DNA of 41,372 nt from a virus (lineage: Duplodnaviria; Heunggongvirae; Uroviricota; Caudoviricetes): positions 1 to 41,372 of the IMG/VR virus record IMGVR_UViG_2778261576_000004; one strand, written 5' to 3'. Of this stretch, positions 1,450-35,556 are shown one piece after another; position 1 is the first letter of the stretch; each line of letters starts with the position of its first letter. The notes beneath the pieces were generated by a model that was given only the letters and a program-made list of their open reading frames with translations, was not told the DNA's origin and did no database searches. Both the position numbers and the translations under genes were made by a program.

Positions 1450-2096
1450 GCTGCACGCTCCCGCCCCTGGTTGTCTGTTGGTGACAGCGGAGCATTGCTG
1501 AATGCATTTGTTAATCTGGCAATATCCAACGCGTATCCAGGGTGTAGTTGCACTGCCGGGTCTTCGCACTGATTACCCCAAACATCGAAACCATGAGACG
1601 ACTGGCGGGCGAACAGTTCAATGCGAGAAACATCGCCTAACAATTGCACAAGTTTTTCACGAACGATATCTGGTTTTCTTGAATGCTCAAGCCGCGGTGC
1701 GGTAAATGACTGAACGATCCCTGCATTAATGCGCGTAGGTAGTTTTCCCTTTACTGCAAACAGGCAATCTTCACTATTGGCGCGAGTCATGTGACCCATA
1801 CCCATAACCAGTTTATCTGGTTGTCGACTACCACATTTTATCCACGTGAATCCCTTCATGGTCATCAGACGGAATCCCCAGGCCTCAACAACTTTTAGTG
1901 CTTCGAGTGGTTGTGTTGGCACCCACCACATGGCCAACAGACAGTTTTCATCGGCCAAATCCCACACAGGAAGGCGGCAGATATCCAGCACACTCATAAC
2001 CGGATATTTAAAACCGGCACCGCGATTACCATCTGCGGCTTTGTCCCGGTATACCCAGGGTGGATCTGCATAGATTAGTGTGTATTTCTTAGTCAT
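1446..2096 (-). CDS. MT-A70 family N6-adenine DNA methyltransferase
   Basis: N-terminal IYADPPW motif (DPPW catalytic signature) and overall MT-A70-like layout; start taken at the ATG giving MTKKY. No adjacent restriction gene. Confidence 0.85.
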   Translation of the reverse strand: MTKKYTLIYADPPWVYRDKAADGNRGAGFKYPVMSVLDICRLPVWDLADENCLLAMWWVPTQPLEALKVVEAWGFRLMTMKGFTWIKCGSRQPDKLVMGMGHMTRANSEDCLFAVKGKLPTRINAGIVQSFTAPRLEHSRKPDIVREKLVQLLGDVSRIELFARQSSHGFDVWGNQCEDPAVQLHPGYALDIARLTNAFSNAPLSPTDNQGRERAA

Positions 2097-2388
2097 AAAC
2101 CACCCCACAACATCCTATGCCGCTATAGTCGCCACGGCGAAGGCCGTTACCTTTTGTGATACATTGGTCCCTGCGAACCGCGATCCTTGCACGCTCAACA
2201 TCACCAGAAGCAACATCCATACACTGAAGCCAAAGGTGAGCGGCAATGCGGAACTGCCCTTTTTTCTCTCTTTCAATCGCGCGTTTTTCGATCTCTATCG
2301 CCGCAGGAGTAACGGCGACAATCTTTGACGGACTGCGCATTGAAACCTTGTTCATGTGATATTTTTCAAGTCGGCTTAACTTTCTCAC
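2089..2388 (-). CDS. Hypothetical protein
   Basis: ORF with GTG at 2388 and internal ATG at 2355; 3' end overlaps the methyltransferase start by 8 nt. No recognisable domain. Confidence 0.3.
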   Translation of the reverse strand: MRKLSRLEKYHMNKVSMRSPSKIVAVTPAAIEIEKRAIEREKKGQFRIAAHLWLQCMDVASGDVERARIAVRRDQCITKGNGLRRGDYSGIGCCGVVYD

Positions 2389-8130: not shown

Positions 8131-8207
8131 TTACCTGTTAGGTAATAAAATATTCTAAAATCTATTGATTTCGTGTCTTATGTGGTTTTTAATTACCTCA
8201 GAGGTAA
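8131..8207. promoter_or_regulatory. Two palindrome copies (8131-8145, 8193-8207) plus a TATGTGGTT box (8179-8187) upstream of the 8211 gene
   Basis: Perfect TTACCTGTTAGGTAA and TTACCTCAGAGGTAA; the second ends 3 nt before ATG 8211 and overlaps the SD. Confidence 0.45.
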
Positions 8208-12972: not shown

Positions 12973-13322
12973 TGGACTATTCACAGTTAAGTGATTTTGA
13001 AATTAACAGAATGGTAGGAGACATAATTTTTAAAGGACTTTGGGCGTGTAAACCGGAAACATCAGGGAATAACACCAACAAATGGTATTACGGAAATACT
13101 GATACAACTTTTGAGCCATTAAACCCTTTACCTGACTACTGCAATAATCCATCGGATGCATGGCCTATTATTGTTGATAATAAAATCAGTCTAACCTGCC
13201 ACCACTCTCGCGGTGAGTGGTCAGCAGTTTTTAATGCCGACAACATTTGCTTTCATGCGAATAATCCACTCCGAGCCGCCATGATTGTATTTCTCATGAT
13301 GCAGGAAAATCAGAATGGCTAA
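12969..13322 (+). CDS. Hypothetical phage protein
   Basis: 117-aa ORF with overlapping stop/start on both sides; no confident domain call. Confidence 0.4.
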   Translation: MMDYSQLSDFEINRMVGDIIFKGLWACKPETSGNNTNKWYYGNTDTTFEPLNPLPDYCNNPSDAWPIIVDNKISLTCHHSRGEWSAVFNADNICFHANNPLRAAMIVFLMMQENQNG

Positions 13323-13653
13323 ATCAGCAGCAGAGCGCAAAGCCGCTCAGAGAGCCAGACAAGCTGCATCTGGCGTGCGTAAGCTGGAAATTGTGCTTGA
13401 TGCTCAGGAAATTGAAATGCTGGAGCGTAACTGTGCCACGCGTCGCCCCGGGCGTGCGCCTTACGAATTTGGTGAGTATATAGCGTTACTGATCCGCCAG
13501 GATGATGCACGCGTGCGCGGGCGTATAAAATCGATCAGCAGAAAACGTTGCGGTAAGTGCGGCGAGATAGTTCCTGTGAATTCATGCCCGTGTAATGGTG
13601 ACTCGCAATGCTGGGTGACCAAAGGCTGGCATGAAACGAAATTAATAGTGTGA
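13315..13653 (+). CDS. Hypothetical protein with basic N-terminus and C-terminal Cys cluster (candidate regulator)
   Basis: N-terminus MAKSAAERKAAQRARQAASG...; C-terminal CGKCGEIVPVNSCPCNGDSQC zinc-ribbon-like cluster; last gene before the terminase-proximal terminator. Confidence 0.4.
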   Translation: MAKSAAERKAAQRARQAASGVRKLEIVLDAQEIEMLERNCATRRPGRAPYEFGEYIALLIRQDDARVRGRIKSISRKRCGKCGEIVPVNSCPCNGDSQCWVTKGWHETKLIV

Positions 13654-13670
13654 CATGTCACGAAGGTGTT

Positions 13671-13883
13671 ATGCCAAAAATACGCTACGACCTTGAAGAT
13701 ATGAGAGATAACTCAGCAAATTTTCCGAAAGAGGTTAAATTTCTCATGCATAAGTATGGTTGCGCCAGGAGGGATATAGTTATCGACAGTCAGCACCCTT
13801 GCGGCGAGGATGTAATTTTCATTCGCGGTAAATGGGAAGGGTATCTTGACGAGAGTTTTTACGATGAATTTGATGGACTTTGA
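13671..13883 (+). CDS. Hypothetical small protein
   Basis: ATG at 13671 with GAAGGTG SD; the GTGACATGTCAC palindrome overlaps the upstream stop. Confidence 0.3.
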   Translation: MPKIRYDLEDMRDNSANFPKEVKFLMHKYGCARRDIVIDSQHPCGEDVIFIRGKWEGYLDESFYDEFDGL

Positions 13884-13888
13884 ATACT

Positions 13889-13914
13889 GCCGCCAACTAT
13901 GGCGGCTTTATTTT
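13889..13914 (+). terminator. Rho-independent terminator upstream of the terminase genes
   Basis: GCCGCC-AACTAT-GGCGGC hairpin followed by TTTATTTTG. Confidence 0.6.
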
Positions 13915-13925
13915 GCATGGTACTA

Positions 13926-13940
13926 TTACCACAACGGTAA
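13926..13940. promoter_or_regulatory. TTACC-N5-GGTAA palindrome upstream of the terminase small subunit gene
   Basis: Perfect TTACCACAACGGTAA between the terminator and ATG 13958 (17 nt upstream); a partial repeat (CTATTACCAC) follows. Confidence 0.45.
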
Positions 13941-13957
13941 CTATTACCACGGTGGTT

Positions 13958-14554
13958 ATGATGCCTGCTGAACCTAAAACCTATAAACGCAAATCAACGC
14001 AATTTAAGCCGCTCACAGCAATGCAGGAGGCTTATTGCCAGTCATACATCAAAACGCCTGAAAACCAGACTCAGGCAGCGATTAACGCAGGATTCTCCCC
14101 AAATACAGCGGCAGTTAAAGCCAGTGTCATGATGCGCGATGAACGCATTCAAAAACGGATTGCCGAGTTGATGGAGGAGCGCAACAAACGAATGCGCGTC
14201 AGTGCTGATTACGTTCTCATGCGCCTGGTGGAGATCGACCAGATGGACGTGATCGACATCCTCAACGACGATGGGAGCCTTAAGCCAATCCGCGAGTGGC
14301 CGAAAATCTGGCGCACTACGCTTAGTGGCTTTGATCTGTCATCGACCATCATGAACATGAACGAGGATTCGATAGAGACAATCCTCAAAAAAATTAAATG
14401 GCCTGACAAGGTGAAGAACCTCGAACTGATTGGTAAGCACGTCGACGTCAACGCGTTCAAAGAACGCCTGGATGTTAATGTGAATGTGACAATTGCTGAT
14501 CGCATAGCGGCAGCCAGGAAGCGACTCAAAGAACGTCAGGATGGTAATCAGTGA
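13958..14554 (+). CDS. Terminase small subunit
   Basis: Directly upstream of and coupled to the large subunit; HTH-like N-terminus (TAMQEAYCQSYIK...AAINAGFSPNTAAVKAS). ORF-track start 13880 rejected because it spans the terminator. Confidence 0.65.
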   Translation: MMPAEPKTYKRKSTQFKPLTAMQEAYCQSYIKTPENQTQAAINAGFSPNTAAVKASVMMRDERIQKRIAELMEERNKRMRVSADYVLMRLVEIDQMDVIDILNDDGSLKPIREWPKIWRTTLSGFDLSSTIMNMNEDSIETILKKIKWPDKVKNLELIGKHVDVNAFKERLDVNVNVTIADRIAAARKRLKERQDGNQ

Positions 14555-16026: not shown

Positions 16027-16116
16027 TCCGCTGGTGGGGATAATGTCGTTGATATCCTCTGATGAGGATAAAACAAAGCCAGCTCATCGGCTGGCTGTTT
16101 GTGACATGTCACGGTG

Positions 16117-16488
16117 TTATTGCTCGCTTAGCTTCTGCTTCAGCAAGTAACCTTCGAGCATCCAGATTTTGTTTACAGCATTCTGCCGGGCAATCTTCCG
16201 ACCAATTTCTGCATCAAAGTTTTCCGGGCTTGCACAGGCGCTCTCTCCGGTGACGGTGAAGCCGTTGCGCAGCACCAGGACGCAGAACGTCAGCAGAGAA
16301 AGTGATTCGTGCGGCTGGTAGTTTACCTCTCCGCCAGTATGTTTCGCTTTTATGGCTTTGCCAAAGGCACCATCTTCTGCTGTGAAATATGCCTCCTGAG
16401 CAATAATGCCTTCGATATGGTCTGGCGTAACGCGCGGTGCCGTTTTGCCTTTCTCAACGATTTCTTTTTCGATTTGCTTGTCGTTCAT
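16117..16488 (-). CDS. Hypothetical protein (possibly Gp49/Sf6 gp66-like family)
   Basis: 123-aa minus-strand ORF inserted between terminase and portal genes on the opposite strand; family name from memory only. Confidence 0.4.
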   Translation of the reverse strand: MNDKQIEKEIVEKGKTAPRVTPDHIEGIIAQEAYFTAEDGAFGKAIKAKHTGGEVNYQPHESLSLLTFCVLVLRNGFTVTGESACASPENFDAEIGRKIARQNAVNKIWMLEGYLLKQKLSEQ

Positions 16489-17085: not shown

Positions 17086-17165
17086 TTACCTGAAAGGTAA
17101 TAATTCACGCGTTAAATGTCAACCTTCTACGATAAATAAATCATATGTGGTTAAATTGGTAATAA
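17086..17165. promoter_or_regulatory. Palindrome (17086-17100) plus TATGTGGTT box (17144-17152) and GGTAATA (17159-17165) upstream of the portal operon
   Basis: Same arrangement as upstream of the tailspike gene (35438-35502). Confidence 0.45.
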
Positions 17166-17190
17166 TTTAATTGCGTACGGAGTCATTGAT

Positions 17191-32649: not shown

Positions 32650-32661
32650 TAGGTGACCTTT

Positions 32662-33111
32662 ATGTTCAAGAAGATGATCAACAGATTAATCGGTGGTAAG
32701 GAGGTTAGCAATAAAATTCAACCTCTTATCTTTAAGGATAACTTTTCAGCTTTTGAGTATGCGTGTAAGTATCTTGACACAAGCCTTTCAGCCAATAAAC
32801 CAATGCCAGCCATCATCATACCTGGTCCCAGTGGGGAACAGCCAGTTTTGCTGGATTCTGGAAGACAAAGGGCAATGCTGAAGGTGTGCTCAGCTGATGG
32901 TGGATTTTTTGTTATTGCCGATTCATCTTACAGCAAAGGACCAAAGCTGAGGATTGGTGATCTTGTTGCTTGGTTGCCTGTGAGTTATGCCGAAGAATTA
33001 ACGGATAAAATAGAAGATCCTCGCTCCGCTATGGTTGGCTTTATATTGGGAACCATTCATCCTGAACTAACATCTACTGGCTGGAAGGGTAAAGAAAGAT
33101 TTCGCAAGTAG
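32662..33111 (+). CDS. Hypothetical protein (AT-rich accessory gene)
   Basis: ATG 32662 with AGGTGA SD; divergent from the 32209-32649 gene with almost no spacer; followed by a terminator. Confidence 0.4.
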   Translation: MFKKMINRLIGGKEVSNKIQPLIFKDNFSAFEYACKYLDTSLSANKPMPAIIIPGPSGEQPVLLDSGRQRAMLKVCSADGGFFVIADSSYSKGPKLRIGDLVAWLPVSYAEELTDKIEDPRSAMVGFILGTIHPELTSTGWKGKERFRK

Positions 33112-33125
33112 CGTGACATGTCACA

Positions 33126-33149
33126 GGCCGCTTTCGCGGCCTTGTTTTT
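33126..33149 (+). terminator. Rho-independent terminator
   Basis: GGCCGC-TTTC-GCGGCC hairpin followed by TTGTTTTT; directly preceded by the GTGACATGTCAC palindrome. Confidence 0.6.
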
Positions 33150-34042: not shown

Positions 34043-34057
34043 TTACCTTTAAGGTAA
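34043..34057. promoter_or_regulatory. TTACC-N5-GGTAA palindrome at the 5' end of the small-gene cassette
   Basis: Perfect TTACCTTTAAGGTAA abutting the SD; upstream on the minus strand are a TTGCAG -35-like and TACTAT -10-like hexamer with 17-bp spacing. Confidence 0.4.
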
Positions 34058-34129: not shown

Positions 34130-34786
34130 TCAGAAGAACCCAGCCTTGTCGTTGATGTACTCCGCGTGGGTCTGGATATCACGCAGGCATTTGCTCACAC
34201 CAACAATGTAGCAGAACATGGTGGTCAGCTCCGCCGCCGCACCCGATACGTCGTGCCCGTCTTCCTGTAACTGGTTCAGCAGATTCATCAGCAGTGAGTT
34301 CTCCGTCAGGCCGAGAACACCAGACGGCGAATGAATCAGGCTACGGTAGCCGGGCTTCAGTGGGGCGCTGTATTCTTTTTTGTCTTCCAGCTTGATCGCC
34401 TCCATAATGGCGGGCATGAAGCCTGACAAGACCTTCTCCACTTTTGTTTCTTGTTGTCTTAAACGTTTCTCGCATTCAATGAAGTAGCGTCGCACCTGGC
34501 GACCTTTTTCGTTACGCTCGACCATCGCCAGCTCTTTGGCTGTATCAAGGGTGAGGTGGTACTCTTTGCGGTTGTGGCCGCCTCTACCAGATGTTTGCTT
34601 TCCCAAATTGGAAAGCAAAATATAGTCTTGATTTTCAATGAATTCGTATTCTGATATGCGATTTGTAATCCATGCTGCAAACACCTTTTTAACACCTAAA
34701 AAAGCGTGCAGATCGCGGGCATTACAAAGTAGGGCTGTTTCGTTAGATATAGTGCCGTTGAATACGGGGATGAGTTGAGCGTTCAT
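34130..34786 (-). CDS. Phage antirepressor (AntA/AntB-type N-terminal domain)
   Basis: N-terminus [38 protein letters not shown] matches the AntA pattern as recalled; C-terminal domain shared with the 35104-35361 product; GGAGA SD. Confidence 0.7.
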
Positions 34787-35361: not shown

Positions 35362-35437
35362 CTTATCTTCTCCATGCAATAACTGTATATTTATACAGTA
35401 TCAAATAATTTGTTTGCTATCCAGCACGTTTTGAAAA

Positions 35438-35502
35438 TTACCTGAAAGGTAATATATATTCGTATTTACAGCCTTTCTATCCATATGTGGTTTTACAGGT
35501 AA
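35438..35502. promoter_or_regulatory. Palindrome (35438-35452) plus TATGTGGTT box (35484-35492) and GGTAATA in the divergent region upstream of the tailspike gene
   Basis: TTACCTGAAAGGTAA is identical to the copy upstream of the portal operon. Confidence 0.45.
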
Positions 35503-35556
35503 TAGAATAACCAGATATGCGGCGCAACGGGTGCTGCGACTATCTGGAGATTTAAC

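Follow-up and report, generated by a model that had tools for sequence, protein, structure and literature searches.

A small cysteine-cluster protein of the PHROG 536 family in an epsilon15-like prophage and its candidate 12-bp site at transcription-unit boundaries

We analyzed a 41,372-nucleotide (nt) stretch of caudoviral DNA (IMG/VR record IMGVR_UViG_2778261576_000004, positions 1 to 41,372; hereafter, the window), with a focus on a small plus-strand gene at positions 13315–13653 and on a short palindromic motif that accompanies this gene in many phages. The window represents an epsilon15/phiV10-like (Uetakevirus) prophage and, over this stretch, is 98% identical to phage vB_EcoP_ZX5 (ZX5). 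The gene is situated at the distal end of an early-right operon of about 8 kb, which consists of a cro-like gene, replication genes, Ead/Ea22-like and DUF551 genes, NinX, and the gene of interest, in this order. Its homologues directly precede terS, as the last gene, in epsilon15, Tyrion, PAT1, ZX5, and TL-2011b. A first-pass annotation had described it as the last sizeable gene before a terminator and terS, and had proposed it as a late-gene regulator. The position was confirmed, and the terminator was found (hairpin 13889–13906 plus T tract), but the gene is not strictly the last one, as an accessory open reading frame (ORF) of phrog_1541 intervenes in the window. In ZX5 and TL-2011b, the phages closest to the window, the counterpart of this ORF is cut to its last eight codons. 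The early-right ORFs scanned contained no Q-family domain, in agreement with the statement of the annotation that no Q-like gene is recognizable, and no Q, Ogr or Mor domain was detected among the window ORFs scanned. The spot downstream of the gene is also an insertion hotspot that is occupied by unrelated genes in other lineages. A conserved two-gene module downstream of the gene was considered and rejected, as the downstream genes are unrelated between lineages except in the N15-like phages.

The ORF starts with ATG, comprises 112 amino acid codons according to a program-made ORF list, and overlaps the stop codon of the upstream NinX-like gene by 8 nt (ATGGCTAA). The gene is genuine: its product matches phrog_536 end to end (E-value 5.5e-54, residues 1–111 on profile positions 2–114 of 115), has many relatives, and contains invariant cysteines. 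Nor is it a new gene, the family having already been catalogued and named: PHROG 536 is a small, phage-only family that includes epsilon15 gp49, N15 gp46, ZF40 gp22, and phiKO2 Gp45, and its database annotation is "transcriptional regulator", in name only. A collection of 5.8 billion proteins yielded 724 relatives (E-value <= 0.001), almost all of which were labelled "hypothetical"; none had a Pfam domain. The family falls into 149 clusters at 50% identity, and the closest protein cluster alone has 866 member sequences. Over the full length, the protein was 77%, 67% and 35% identical to its homologues from epsilon15, ZF40 and N15, respectively (tblastn). The literature searched provided no experimental function for any PHROG 536 member, those of epsilon15, N15, ZF40, and phiKO2 included. 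The ZX5 paper covers the repressor, antirepressor and integrase, not this gene, and a "gp46" detected in lysogens of the NAR688 telomere phage was set aside as a cB-like repressor that is irrelevant to the family.

The product is net basic, with 22 K/R and 13 D/E residues, and its N-terminus (MAKSAAERKAAQRARQAASG) is rich in Ala, Arg, and Lys, so the translation bears out the first-pass description of a small basic protein. Cysteines occupy positions 40, 79, 82, 91, 93 and 99. The C-x2-C...C-x-C...C pattern noted by the annotation is present (C79/C82, C91/C93, C99); the zinc ribbon read from it is plausible, but the full spacing (C-x2-C-x8-C-x-C-x5-C) fits no Pfam zinc family. In an alignment of 60 diverse family members, R13, C79, C82 and C99 were invariant, and R8, E54, L59, P87 and G95 were nearly so. 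One further cysteine was present in all 60 members at a variable position. The N-terminal helix is conserved as RK-x2-QR-x-R, with R8, K9, Q12, R13 and R15 as its residues.

A single-chain AlphaFold2 (AF2) model built from the 60-sequence alignment was confident (mean predicted local distance difference test score 91.7), with predicted helices at residues 5–19, 30–42, 52–74 and 100–108 and a cysteine knuckle at residues 79–99. The top structural matches of the model, covering residues ~20–74, were all ribbon-helix-helix (RHH) proteins. Foldseek gave no significant match in the PDB, and its sole match in BFVD, a fragment of the same protein with a misleading automatic name, was discarded. Pfam and NCBIfam scans of the protein returned nothing above threshold, RHH models included, and the family has no Pfam model of its own. 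Sub-threshold matches to RHH_5, RepB-RCR_reg, TacA1, and RHH_1 occurred in a few of the 60 members, and the protein itself weakly matched the LexA-regulated protein YbfE. A single-sequence search against the PDB found nothing. The family profile weakly matched YbiI (E-value 0.012) and TraR (E-value 0.025) in the same database (overall E-value 0.012–0.028, residues ~46–110), and the hhalign probability for a TraR/DksA-type module was a weak 43%. The zf-dskA_traR model (PF01258) matched none of the 60 members, and we treat the weak TraR/DksA-type similarity of the putative zinc-helix part as a lead only. The Q families PF03589, PF06530 and PF06323 had no match in the protein or in any of the 60 members; Ogr_Delta (PF04606) and Mor/C (PF08765) had none in the protein. 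The RHH structural matches, the conserved basic N-terminal helix, and the conserved C4 cluster are features of a regulator that binds nucleic acid.

The motif that accompanies the gene, GTGAC-NN-GTCAC, occurs in the window as GTGACATGTCAC, a perfect 12-bp palindrome with three exact copies (dyads 1 to 3, Table 1) versus 0.01 expected. Each copy follows a stop codon, is near an intrinsic terminator, and is located at the 3' end of an operon, the terS–terL block ending at dyad 2 and the structural operon at dyad 3. The distance to the terminator is 228 nt for dyad 1 (upstream), 4 nt for dyad 2, and 0 nt for dyad 3. Dyad 1 is only 25 nt from the terminator before terS in epsilon15 and Tyrion; the longer gap in the window is due to the inserted accessory ORF, whose ribosome-binding site directly follows dyad 1. 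The epsilon15 dyads (39612, 2142 and 19517) are at the same three positions as those in the window, as are the Tyrion dyads, and comparable positions were observed in PAT1, ZX5, and BUCT711. 

Table 1. Coordinates of features in the window (numbers without a prefix) and in related loci (prefixed numbers).
Feature	Positions	Strand	Basis or remark
Gene of the 112-aa protein; predicted basic N-terminal helix, RHH-like core and C4 zinc module	13315–13653	+	PHROG 536; epsilon15 gp49 / N15 gp46 family
Dyad 1, GTGACATGTCAC; TGA stop of the gene is dyad nt 2–4; putative cognate site	13650–13661	.	Motif search
Accessory ORF, 67 aa from ATG, phrog_1541, between dyad 1 and terminator	13680–13883 (listed as 13650–13883; ATG at 13680 probable)	+	ORF list, profile match
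Intrinsic-terminator-like hairpin and T tract, end of early-right operon before terS	13889–13915	+	Terminator scan; conserved in epsilon15, Tyrion, ZX5, TL-2011b
Two repressor-operator-like sites directly upstream of the terS ATG (13958/13961); not a target of the 112-aa protein	13926–13958 (13926–13940; one-mismatch copy 13944–13958)	.	Motif count and epsilon15 annotation
Terminator hairpin beside dyad 2; T tract good on minus, weak on plus strand	16077–16096	-	Terminator scan
Dyad 2, GTGACATGTCAC, between terL-end terminator and stop of convergent gene 16117–16488 (-)	16101–16112	.	Kept in ZX5, epsilon15, Tyrion, PAT1
Dyad 3, GTGACATGTCAC, 1 nt past stop of ORF 32653–33111, last plus-strand ORF before junction	33113–33124	.	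Kept in epsilon15 (19517), Tyrion (20377)
Terminator hairpin abutting dyad 3	33125–33142	+	Scan
TTACC-N5-GGTAA sites	5026, 5088, 5800, 5848, 6185, 8131, 8193, 13926, 13944, 17086, 34043, 35058, 35438, 38409		Motif search
Second conserved box of late-operon leaders	8177–8187, 17143–17167, 35482–35508		Also in epsilon15, PAT1, Tyrion, BUCT711 (L005, L015–L017)
pR'-like late units, Vibrio-type loci	L010:8354–8553, L011:8387–8670, L020:6417–6640, L025:6679–6905, L018 (K303):33227–33514
Region-4-like protein next to cro, 4 of 5 Vibrio-type loci	L018:28402–28977, L010:3244–3627, L011:3639–4070, L020:1435–1857

We assessed the association of the motif with the family in two ways. In an unbiased scan of all 5-N(0–6)-5 dyads over 15 independent family loci, GTGAC-N2-GTCAC ranked first with 12 positive loci, the next dyad being found in five at most. 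In a survey of 18 diverged family lineages (328 kb in total), 26 exact dyads were detected versus 0.31 expected, and 14 loci were positive. The dyad overlapped or abutted the stop codon of the family gene in seven of the 18 lineages and was within 40 nt of it in eight. A typical genome holds two or three dispersed copies, and the gene and dyad occur together across phages with unrelated neighbor genes. The half-sites are conserved, and the central two bases vary between lineages; copies within one genome are mostly alike in this dinucleotide (AT three times both in the window and in ZF40, TG in two N15 copies, AC in two K303 copies).

The dyad contains the stop codon in the window, N15, and the metagenomic loci L010 and L011, always with TGA as nucleotides 2–4 and with a non-coding right half. 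The sequence over the stop is GTGACTGGTCAC in N15 gene 46, and GTGACAGGTCAC and GTGACTGGTCAC in L010 and L011, respectively, whose family proteins are ~30–35% identical. An exact GTGACATGTCAC is located 2 nt past the stop of ZF40 gp22, and the dyad begins 1 nt past the stop in L020 and L027. L014, a Mu-like prophage, and P0145 have lost the stop, and there the dyad survives within the coding sequence of a C-terminal extension, where it encodes VTGH. Stop-codon read-through or recoding was rejected as an explanation, as the dyad is in differing reading frames between lineages. Often, the ribosome-binding site of the following gene comes right after the dyad (N15 gp47, window ORF 13680, K303 terS, L014 gemA). 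Other copies are located elsewhere: inside the early genes gp08 and cII-like gp12 of ZF40, whose Q gene and late region have no dyad nearby; ~620 nt into repA in N15 and two further N15-like phages (L003:1435, L022:3092, L029:1272 and 1304); and, as a pair, at a convergent gene junction in L024. The repA dyad of L022 is 14 nt from a palindrome, GGGACCACGGTCCC, which we take to resemble the sopC centromere repeat of F. The Yersinia phage vB_YenM_42.18 (L009:11675–11746) carries a cluster of GTGACATGGCAC, GTGACATGTCAC, and a TGTGACA half-site ~100–160 nt upstream of accessory gene gp21.

Conserved half-sites, a free center, and a conserved basic helix fit a dimeric DNA-binding protein with its cognate site, and we consider it likely that the 112-aa protein binds the dyad. 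What we regard as best supported is that the protein is a site-specific DNA binder with a putative operator built around the stop codon of its own gene, and that it would mark three transcription-unit boundaries in this prophage. The RHH-like core probably dimerizes; we infer that binding would be as a dimer with zinc. As for other potential owners of the motif, CRP presumably has a different half-site spacing, and the SlmA site, which we take to be GTGAGTACTCAC, differs from the dyad at two inner half-site bases. To our knowledge, neither the dyad nor its link to the stop codon has been described earlier.

The annotation had further proposed the regions upstream of terS, the portal operon and the tailspike gene (13.9, 17.1 and 35.4 kb) as targets of the protein. 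This part of the proposal was not supported: the dyad was not found in any of the three regions, and repressor operators were present there instead. The window has 14 copies of the inverted repeat TTACC-N5-GGTAA versus 0.66 expected, and the epsilon15 record labels this motif as a binding site of the repressor. It is present on both sides of the repressor gene, the repressor–cro intergenic region included, and over or beside promoter-like sequences before the 8.2-kb gene, terS, the portal operon, the antirepressor region, and the tailspike gene. The tailspike operator falls within the spacer of a promoter-like match scoring 10/12 (35431–35460), and a similar layout was seen by eye at 8.1 kb. 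Because the operators are over or beside the best promoter-like matches, the late operons appear to be under direct control of the prophage repressor. Since its operator is in the spacer of a good promoter-like match, the tailspike promoter at least should need no activator.

Three other candidate elements of these regions were discarded. A repeat of ACTATTACCAC (two copies) before terS belongs to the repressor operator pair rather than being a new direct repeat. A tailspike promoter at TCCATA-17-TAGAAT with an operator at about -70 gave way to the better promoter from the scan, with the operator in its spacer. The conserved box CATATGTGGTT was set aside as a target of the protein, as it does not accompany the family beyond the Uetakeviruses and is downstream of repressor-controlled promoters. 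A second box, CATAT(G/A)(T/A/C)GGTT, followed 5–6 nt later by GGTAATA(G/A)AAT, is present ~30–45 nt downstream of the operator in each late-operon leader, and might represent a second promoter or a signal for pausing or RNA processing.

Next, we examined which late regulators accompany the family in other phages. Family members share their genomes with Q in N15 (gene 40), L022, and L029; with Q-like gp25 in ZF40; with Ogr (PF04606, E-value 2e-19) in the P2-like Yersinia phage vB_YenM_42.18; and with Mor, encoded two genes downstream, in the Mu-like prophage L014. Because its homologues coexist with Q, Ogr and Mor, the family is not a generic stand-alone late activator. No recognized late regulator was seen in the examined sequence around the gene in the Uetakeviruses, K303, L010, L011, and L012. 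In K303, L010, L011, and L020, the early genes end with the family gene, and the lysis or terminase genes follow. These four and L025 constitute five Vibrio-type phages with a late unit resembling lambda pR': a -35 element, a 17-nt spacer, a -10 element, and a second -10-like hexamer (TAnnGT) exactly 6 nt further on, followed by a leader of ~100–200 nt and a strong terminator abutting the first late gene. Such units would imply Q-type antitermination in phages without a recognizable Q gene. In all five, a dyad is positioned at the end of the early unit, at a distance of 51–97 nt from the -35 element of the downstream late promoter; the helical phase is not conserved. The unit directly follows the family gene in L010, L011, and L020; no such unit follows the gene in the window. 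In L025, the family gene is 6 kb away, yet a separate dyad is found 52 nt upstream of the late promoter. The PHROG 536 family is the only protein common to all five loci. Four of the five also encode, next to cro, a protein of 128–192 aa with an N-terminal W-x2-W motif and a sigma-70 region-4-like C-terminus (ECF sigma, E-value 0.006), which is a plausible candidate for a novel Q-like or sigma-like late regulator.

The explanation that we find best overall, though it falls somewhat short of an even chance, is that the protein is a boundary factor: a dimeric, RHH-like, dyad-binding protein with a zinc module. That it acts on transcription at unit boundaries is, in our estimate, slightly favored. 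Because it is the distal product of the ~8-kb early-right operon, the protein would appear with a delay. It would then occupy the three boundary dyads, and the bound protein would alter the passage of RNA polymerase from the early operon to the terminase genes and between the late operons and the convergent accessory genes. The form we prefer is an insulating factor that would limit read-through in both directions, with the opposite sign, helping polymerase past terminators, being nearly as likely. Taken singly, a net negative effect (insulator, roadblock or early shut-off) is rather unlikely, and a net positive one (read-through into the late genes) is unlikely. As a roadblock or boundary element, the protein would make sense of the dyads at convergent junctions and of those within early genes of ZF40 and the N15-like phages; as an antiterminator, it would make sense of the Q-like location of its gene, the short distance of dyads 2 and 3 from their terminators, and the possible TraR-like module. 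The gene is a plausible regulator of the early-to-late switch. Several points weigh against the boundary factor. Four of the 18 lineages have no exact dyad in the available sequence, and the link between gene and dyad is comparative, drawn from their co-occurrence. The extra dyads in ZF40, the N15-like phages and the Yersinia phage are in heterogeneous places, and one mechanism may not fit all of them. The usefulness of a roadblock site 5' of a terminator is not obvious, and antitermination would need fast rebinding behind the terminating polymerase.

Four alternatives were weighed against the boundary factor. A classical late activator that binds upstream of the terS, portal-operon, and tailspike promoters and recruits RNA polymerase, as P2 Ogr or 186 B do, is very improbable. 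The location of a small zinc-cluster protein gene at the early/late boundary agrees with it, as do the lack of Q, Ogr and Mor domains among the window ORFs scanned and the terS and portal-operon promoters, which are weak by consensus and were not reported by the promoter scan. However, the dyads of the window are at 3' ends of operons, not upstream of promoters; the three proposed target regions carry repressor operators instead of dyads, one of them within the spacer of a high-scoring promoter-like match; the protein lacks an Ogr_Delta match and has a different cysteine spacing; its homologues occur alongside Ogr, Q and Mor; and the dyad–promoter distance in the Vibrio-type phages is variable and unphased. 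Of the first-pass proposal of a late-gene regulator, the regulator features and the boundary position are supported, joined by a dyad that travels with the gene, and the classical promoter activator is not. A new kind of antiterminator fares somewhat better, although we still consider it quite unlikely. It would be recruited at the dyads and let polymerase through the adjacent terminators into terS–terL and onward, perhaps via a TraR/DksA-like module, for which the weak TraR/YbiI-like similarity of residues 46–105 speaks, and against which the absence of a zf-dskA_traR match in all 60 members counts. The position of the gene is that of lambda Q: it closes the early genes ahead of lysis or terminase genes in four of the Vibrio-type phages and ahead of terS in epsilon15-like phages. 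The dyad is just upstream of the pR'-like unit in all five Vibrio-type loci, L025 with its distant gene included, and the family is the only protein that these loci share. In the window, dyads 2 and 3 are within 0–4 nt of terminator stems; dyad 1 is 25 nt from the stem in epsilon15 and Tyrion, but 228 nt from it in the window. Known Q-binding elements, as that of lambda Q, lie in the promoter, but the Vibrio-type dyads are outside it, and the cro-adjacent region-4-like helix-turn-helix protein is the better Q-like candidate in four of the five loci. Moreover, only in the direction of the minus-strand accessory gene does dyad 2 precede its terminator, and read-through there would yield RNA antisense to terL. 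N15, ZF40, L022 and L029 already have Q, with no dyad near the late promoter in the sequence examined.

The two remaining alternatives are both improbable, in our view about equally so. An architectural or non-transcriptional role, with dyads bridged to loop or organize the phage DNA or serving replication or plasmid maintenance, would suit the usual two or three dispersed copies per genome, the shared repA position in three N15-like phage-plasmids, the proximity of the L022 dyad to GGGACCACGGTCCC, and the fact that several carriers are phage-plasmids with a ParA gene. Some RHH proteins, ParG and omega among them, bind centromeres. Yet the family is also present in integrating phages that need no partition (Uetakevirus, P2-like, Mu-like, ZF40), the window dyads have no iterons or origin-like context, and their steady adjacency to terminators in the Uetakeviruses points to transcription. 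Alternatively, the protein might not bind the dyad at all, being a TraR-like binder of RNA polymerase, an RNA binder, or a local regulator of accessory genes, with the dyad as a separate linked cis element (a hairpin in the RNA, or a site for some other protein). Arginine is abundant in the basic N-terminal helix, as in the RNA-binding motifs of N proteins, the weak TraR-like similarity would fit, the dyad often directly precedes a ribosome-binding site, and the region downstream of the gene is a hotspot of unrelated accessory genes. Against this, conserved half-sites with a variable center are the signature of a dimeric DNA site and not of a hairpin loop, an RNA stem would have only 4 bp, and the gene and dyad stay together across phages with unrelated neighbors.

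We compared the protein with known regulators. Epsilon15 gp49, N15 gp46, ZF40 gp22, and phiKO2 Gp45 are full-length homologues with the same Arg/Cys pattern and no structural difference, and N15 and ZF40 share with the window a dyad at or adjoining the stop codon of the family gene. RHH regulators (Arc, Mnt, CopG, AmrZ, omega, TacA antitoxins) are similar in their small size, short associated dyad site and fold matches; unlike them, the protein is predicted to carry an additional basic helix ahead of the strand and, at its C-terminus, a C4 zinc module with a helix, and the proposed site is at the 3' end of its own gene, not in its own promoter. Lambda-type Q resembles it in having a distal early-operon gene before the late genes (in several phages), an adjoining probable DNA site, and a zinc cluster, lambda Q also binding zinc; in contrast to Q, the protein is about half the size, has no Q Pfam match and coexists with genuine Q, and its dyad is outside the promoter. 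P2 Ogr, 186 B, and P4 Delta are likewise small zinc-cluster proteins, of temperate phages with several separately promoted late operons, but their cysteine spacing is C-x2-C-x22-C-x4-C and PF04606 does not match the protein. With TraR/DksA-type factors (F TraR, YbiI), which act in the RNA polymerase secondary channel, it shares a long helix, C-x2-C-G-x2-(L/I)-P, a C-terminal helix, and acidic residues (E51, E54) at the start of the long helix; its second Cys pair differs from that in their C-x2-C-x17-C-x2-C. Among small phage DNA-binding regulators, the combination of domains and the placement of the operator are its unusual features.

Epsilon15/phiV10-like prophages are common in E. coli, Salmonella, Klebsiella, and Enterobacter, and no study of their late-gene timing was found in the literature. 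The analysis turns the label "hypothetical protein / transcriptional regulator" into a concrete candidate pair of one protein and one 12-bp site with three copies at operon boundaries, and the gene–dyad pair was found in at least six phage architectures (Uetakevirus, N15-like telomere phages, ZF40, P2-like, Mu-like, and Vibrio phage-plasmids). A more far-reaching possibility, which we regard as somewhat unlikely, is a new class of phage transcription factor that would target RNA polymerase during elongation or termination, at defined DNA sites, and would serve either to prevent termination or as a programmable terminator or insulator. Such a factor would combine a DNA-reading head (basic helix and RHH) with a TraR-like zinc module touching RNA polymerase, and its operator would surround its own stop codon. 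It would supply the missing switch from the early operon to the terminase and structural operons in epsilon15-like phages, which lack Q, N, Ogr, and Mor. If the protein does control termination or read-through from a DNA site, it would add to N, Q, put RNA, Ogr, and Mor, and synthetic circuits would gain a compact orthogonal part. Should it be no more than a local repressor, the result would be ordinary, and would still correct the idea that these late promoters need an activator, because they carry repressor operators.

Several further genes with possible regulatory roles were observed. The early-left operon of the window encodes a homologue of PerC-family activators (2089–2385, minus strand; PF06069, 30.1 bits versus a cutoff of 22.6), another candidate regulator that the first-pass annotation did not list, as well as an AlpA-like protein. 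An AntA-type antirepressor gene (34130–34783) belongs to a minus-strand island that separates the structural operon from the tailspike gene, with the repressor-operator motifs at 34043 and 35058 on either side of the antirepressor gene. In BUCT711 (L017), a near-consensus LexA box (TACTGTTTAAATATACAGTA) is present on the reverse strand just past the dyad at 431–442, before a 109-aa ORF (starting MGFPSPAADYVE) that is UmuD/S24-like by eye and is inserted between the family gene and terS.

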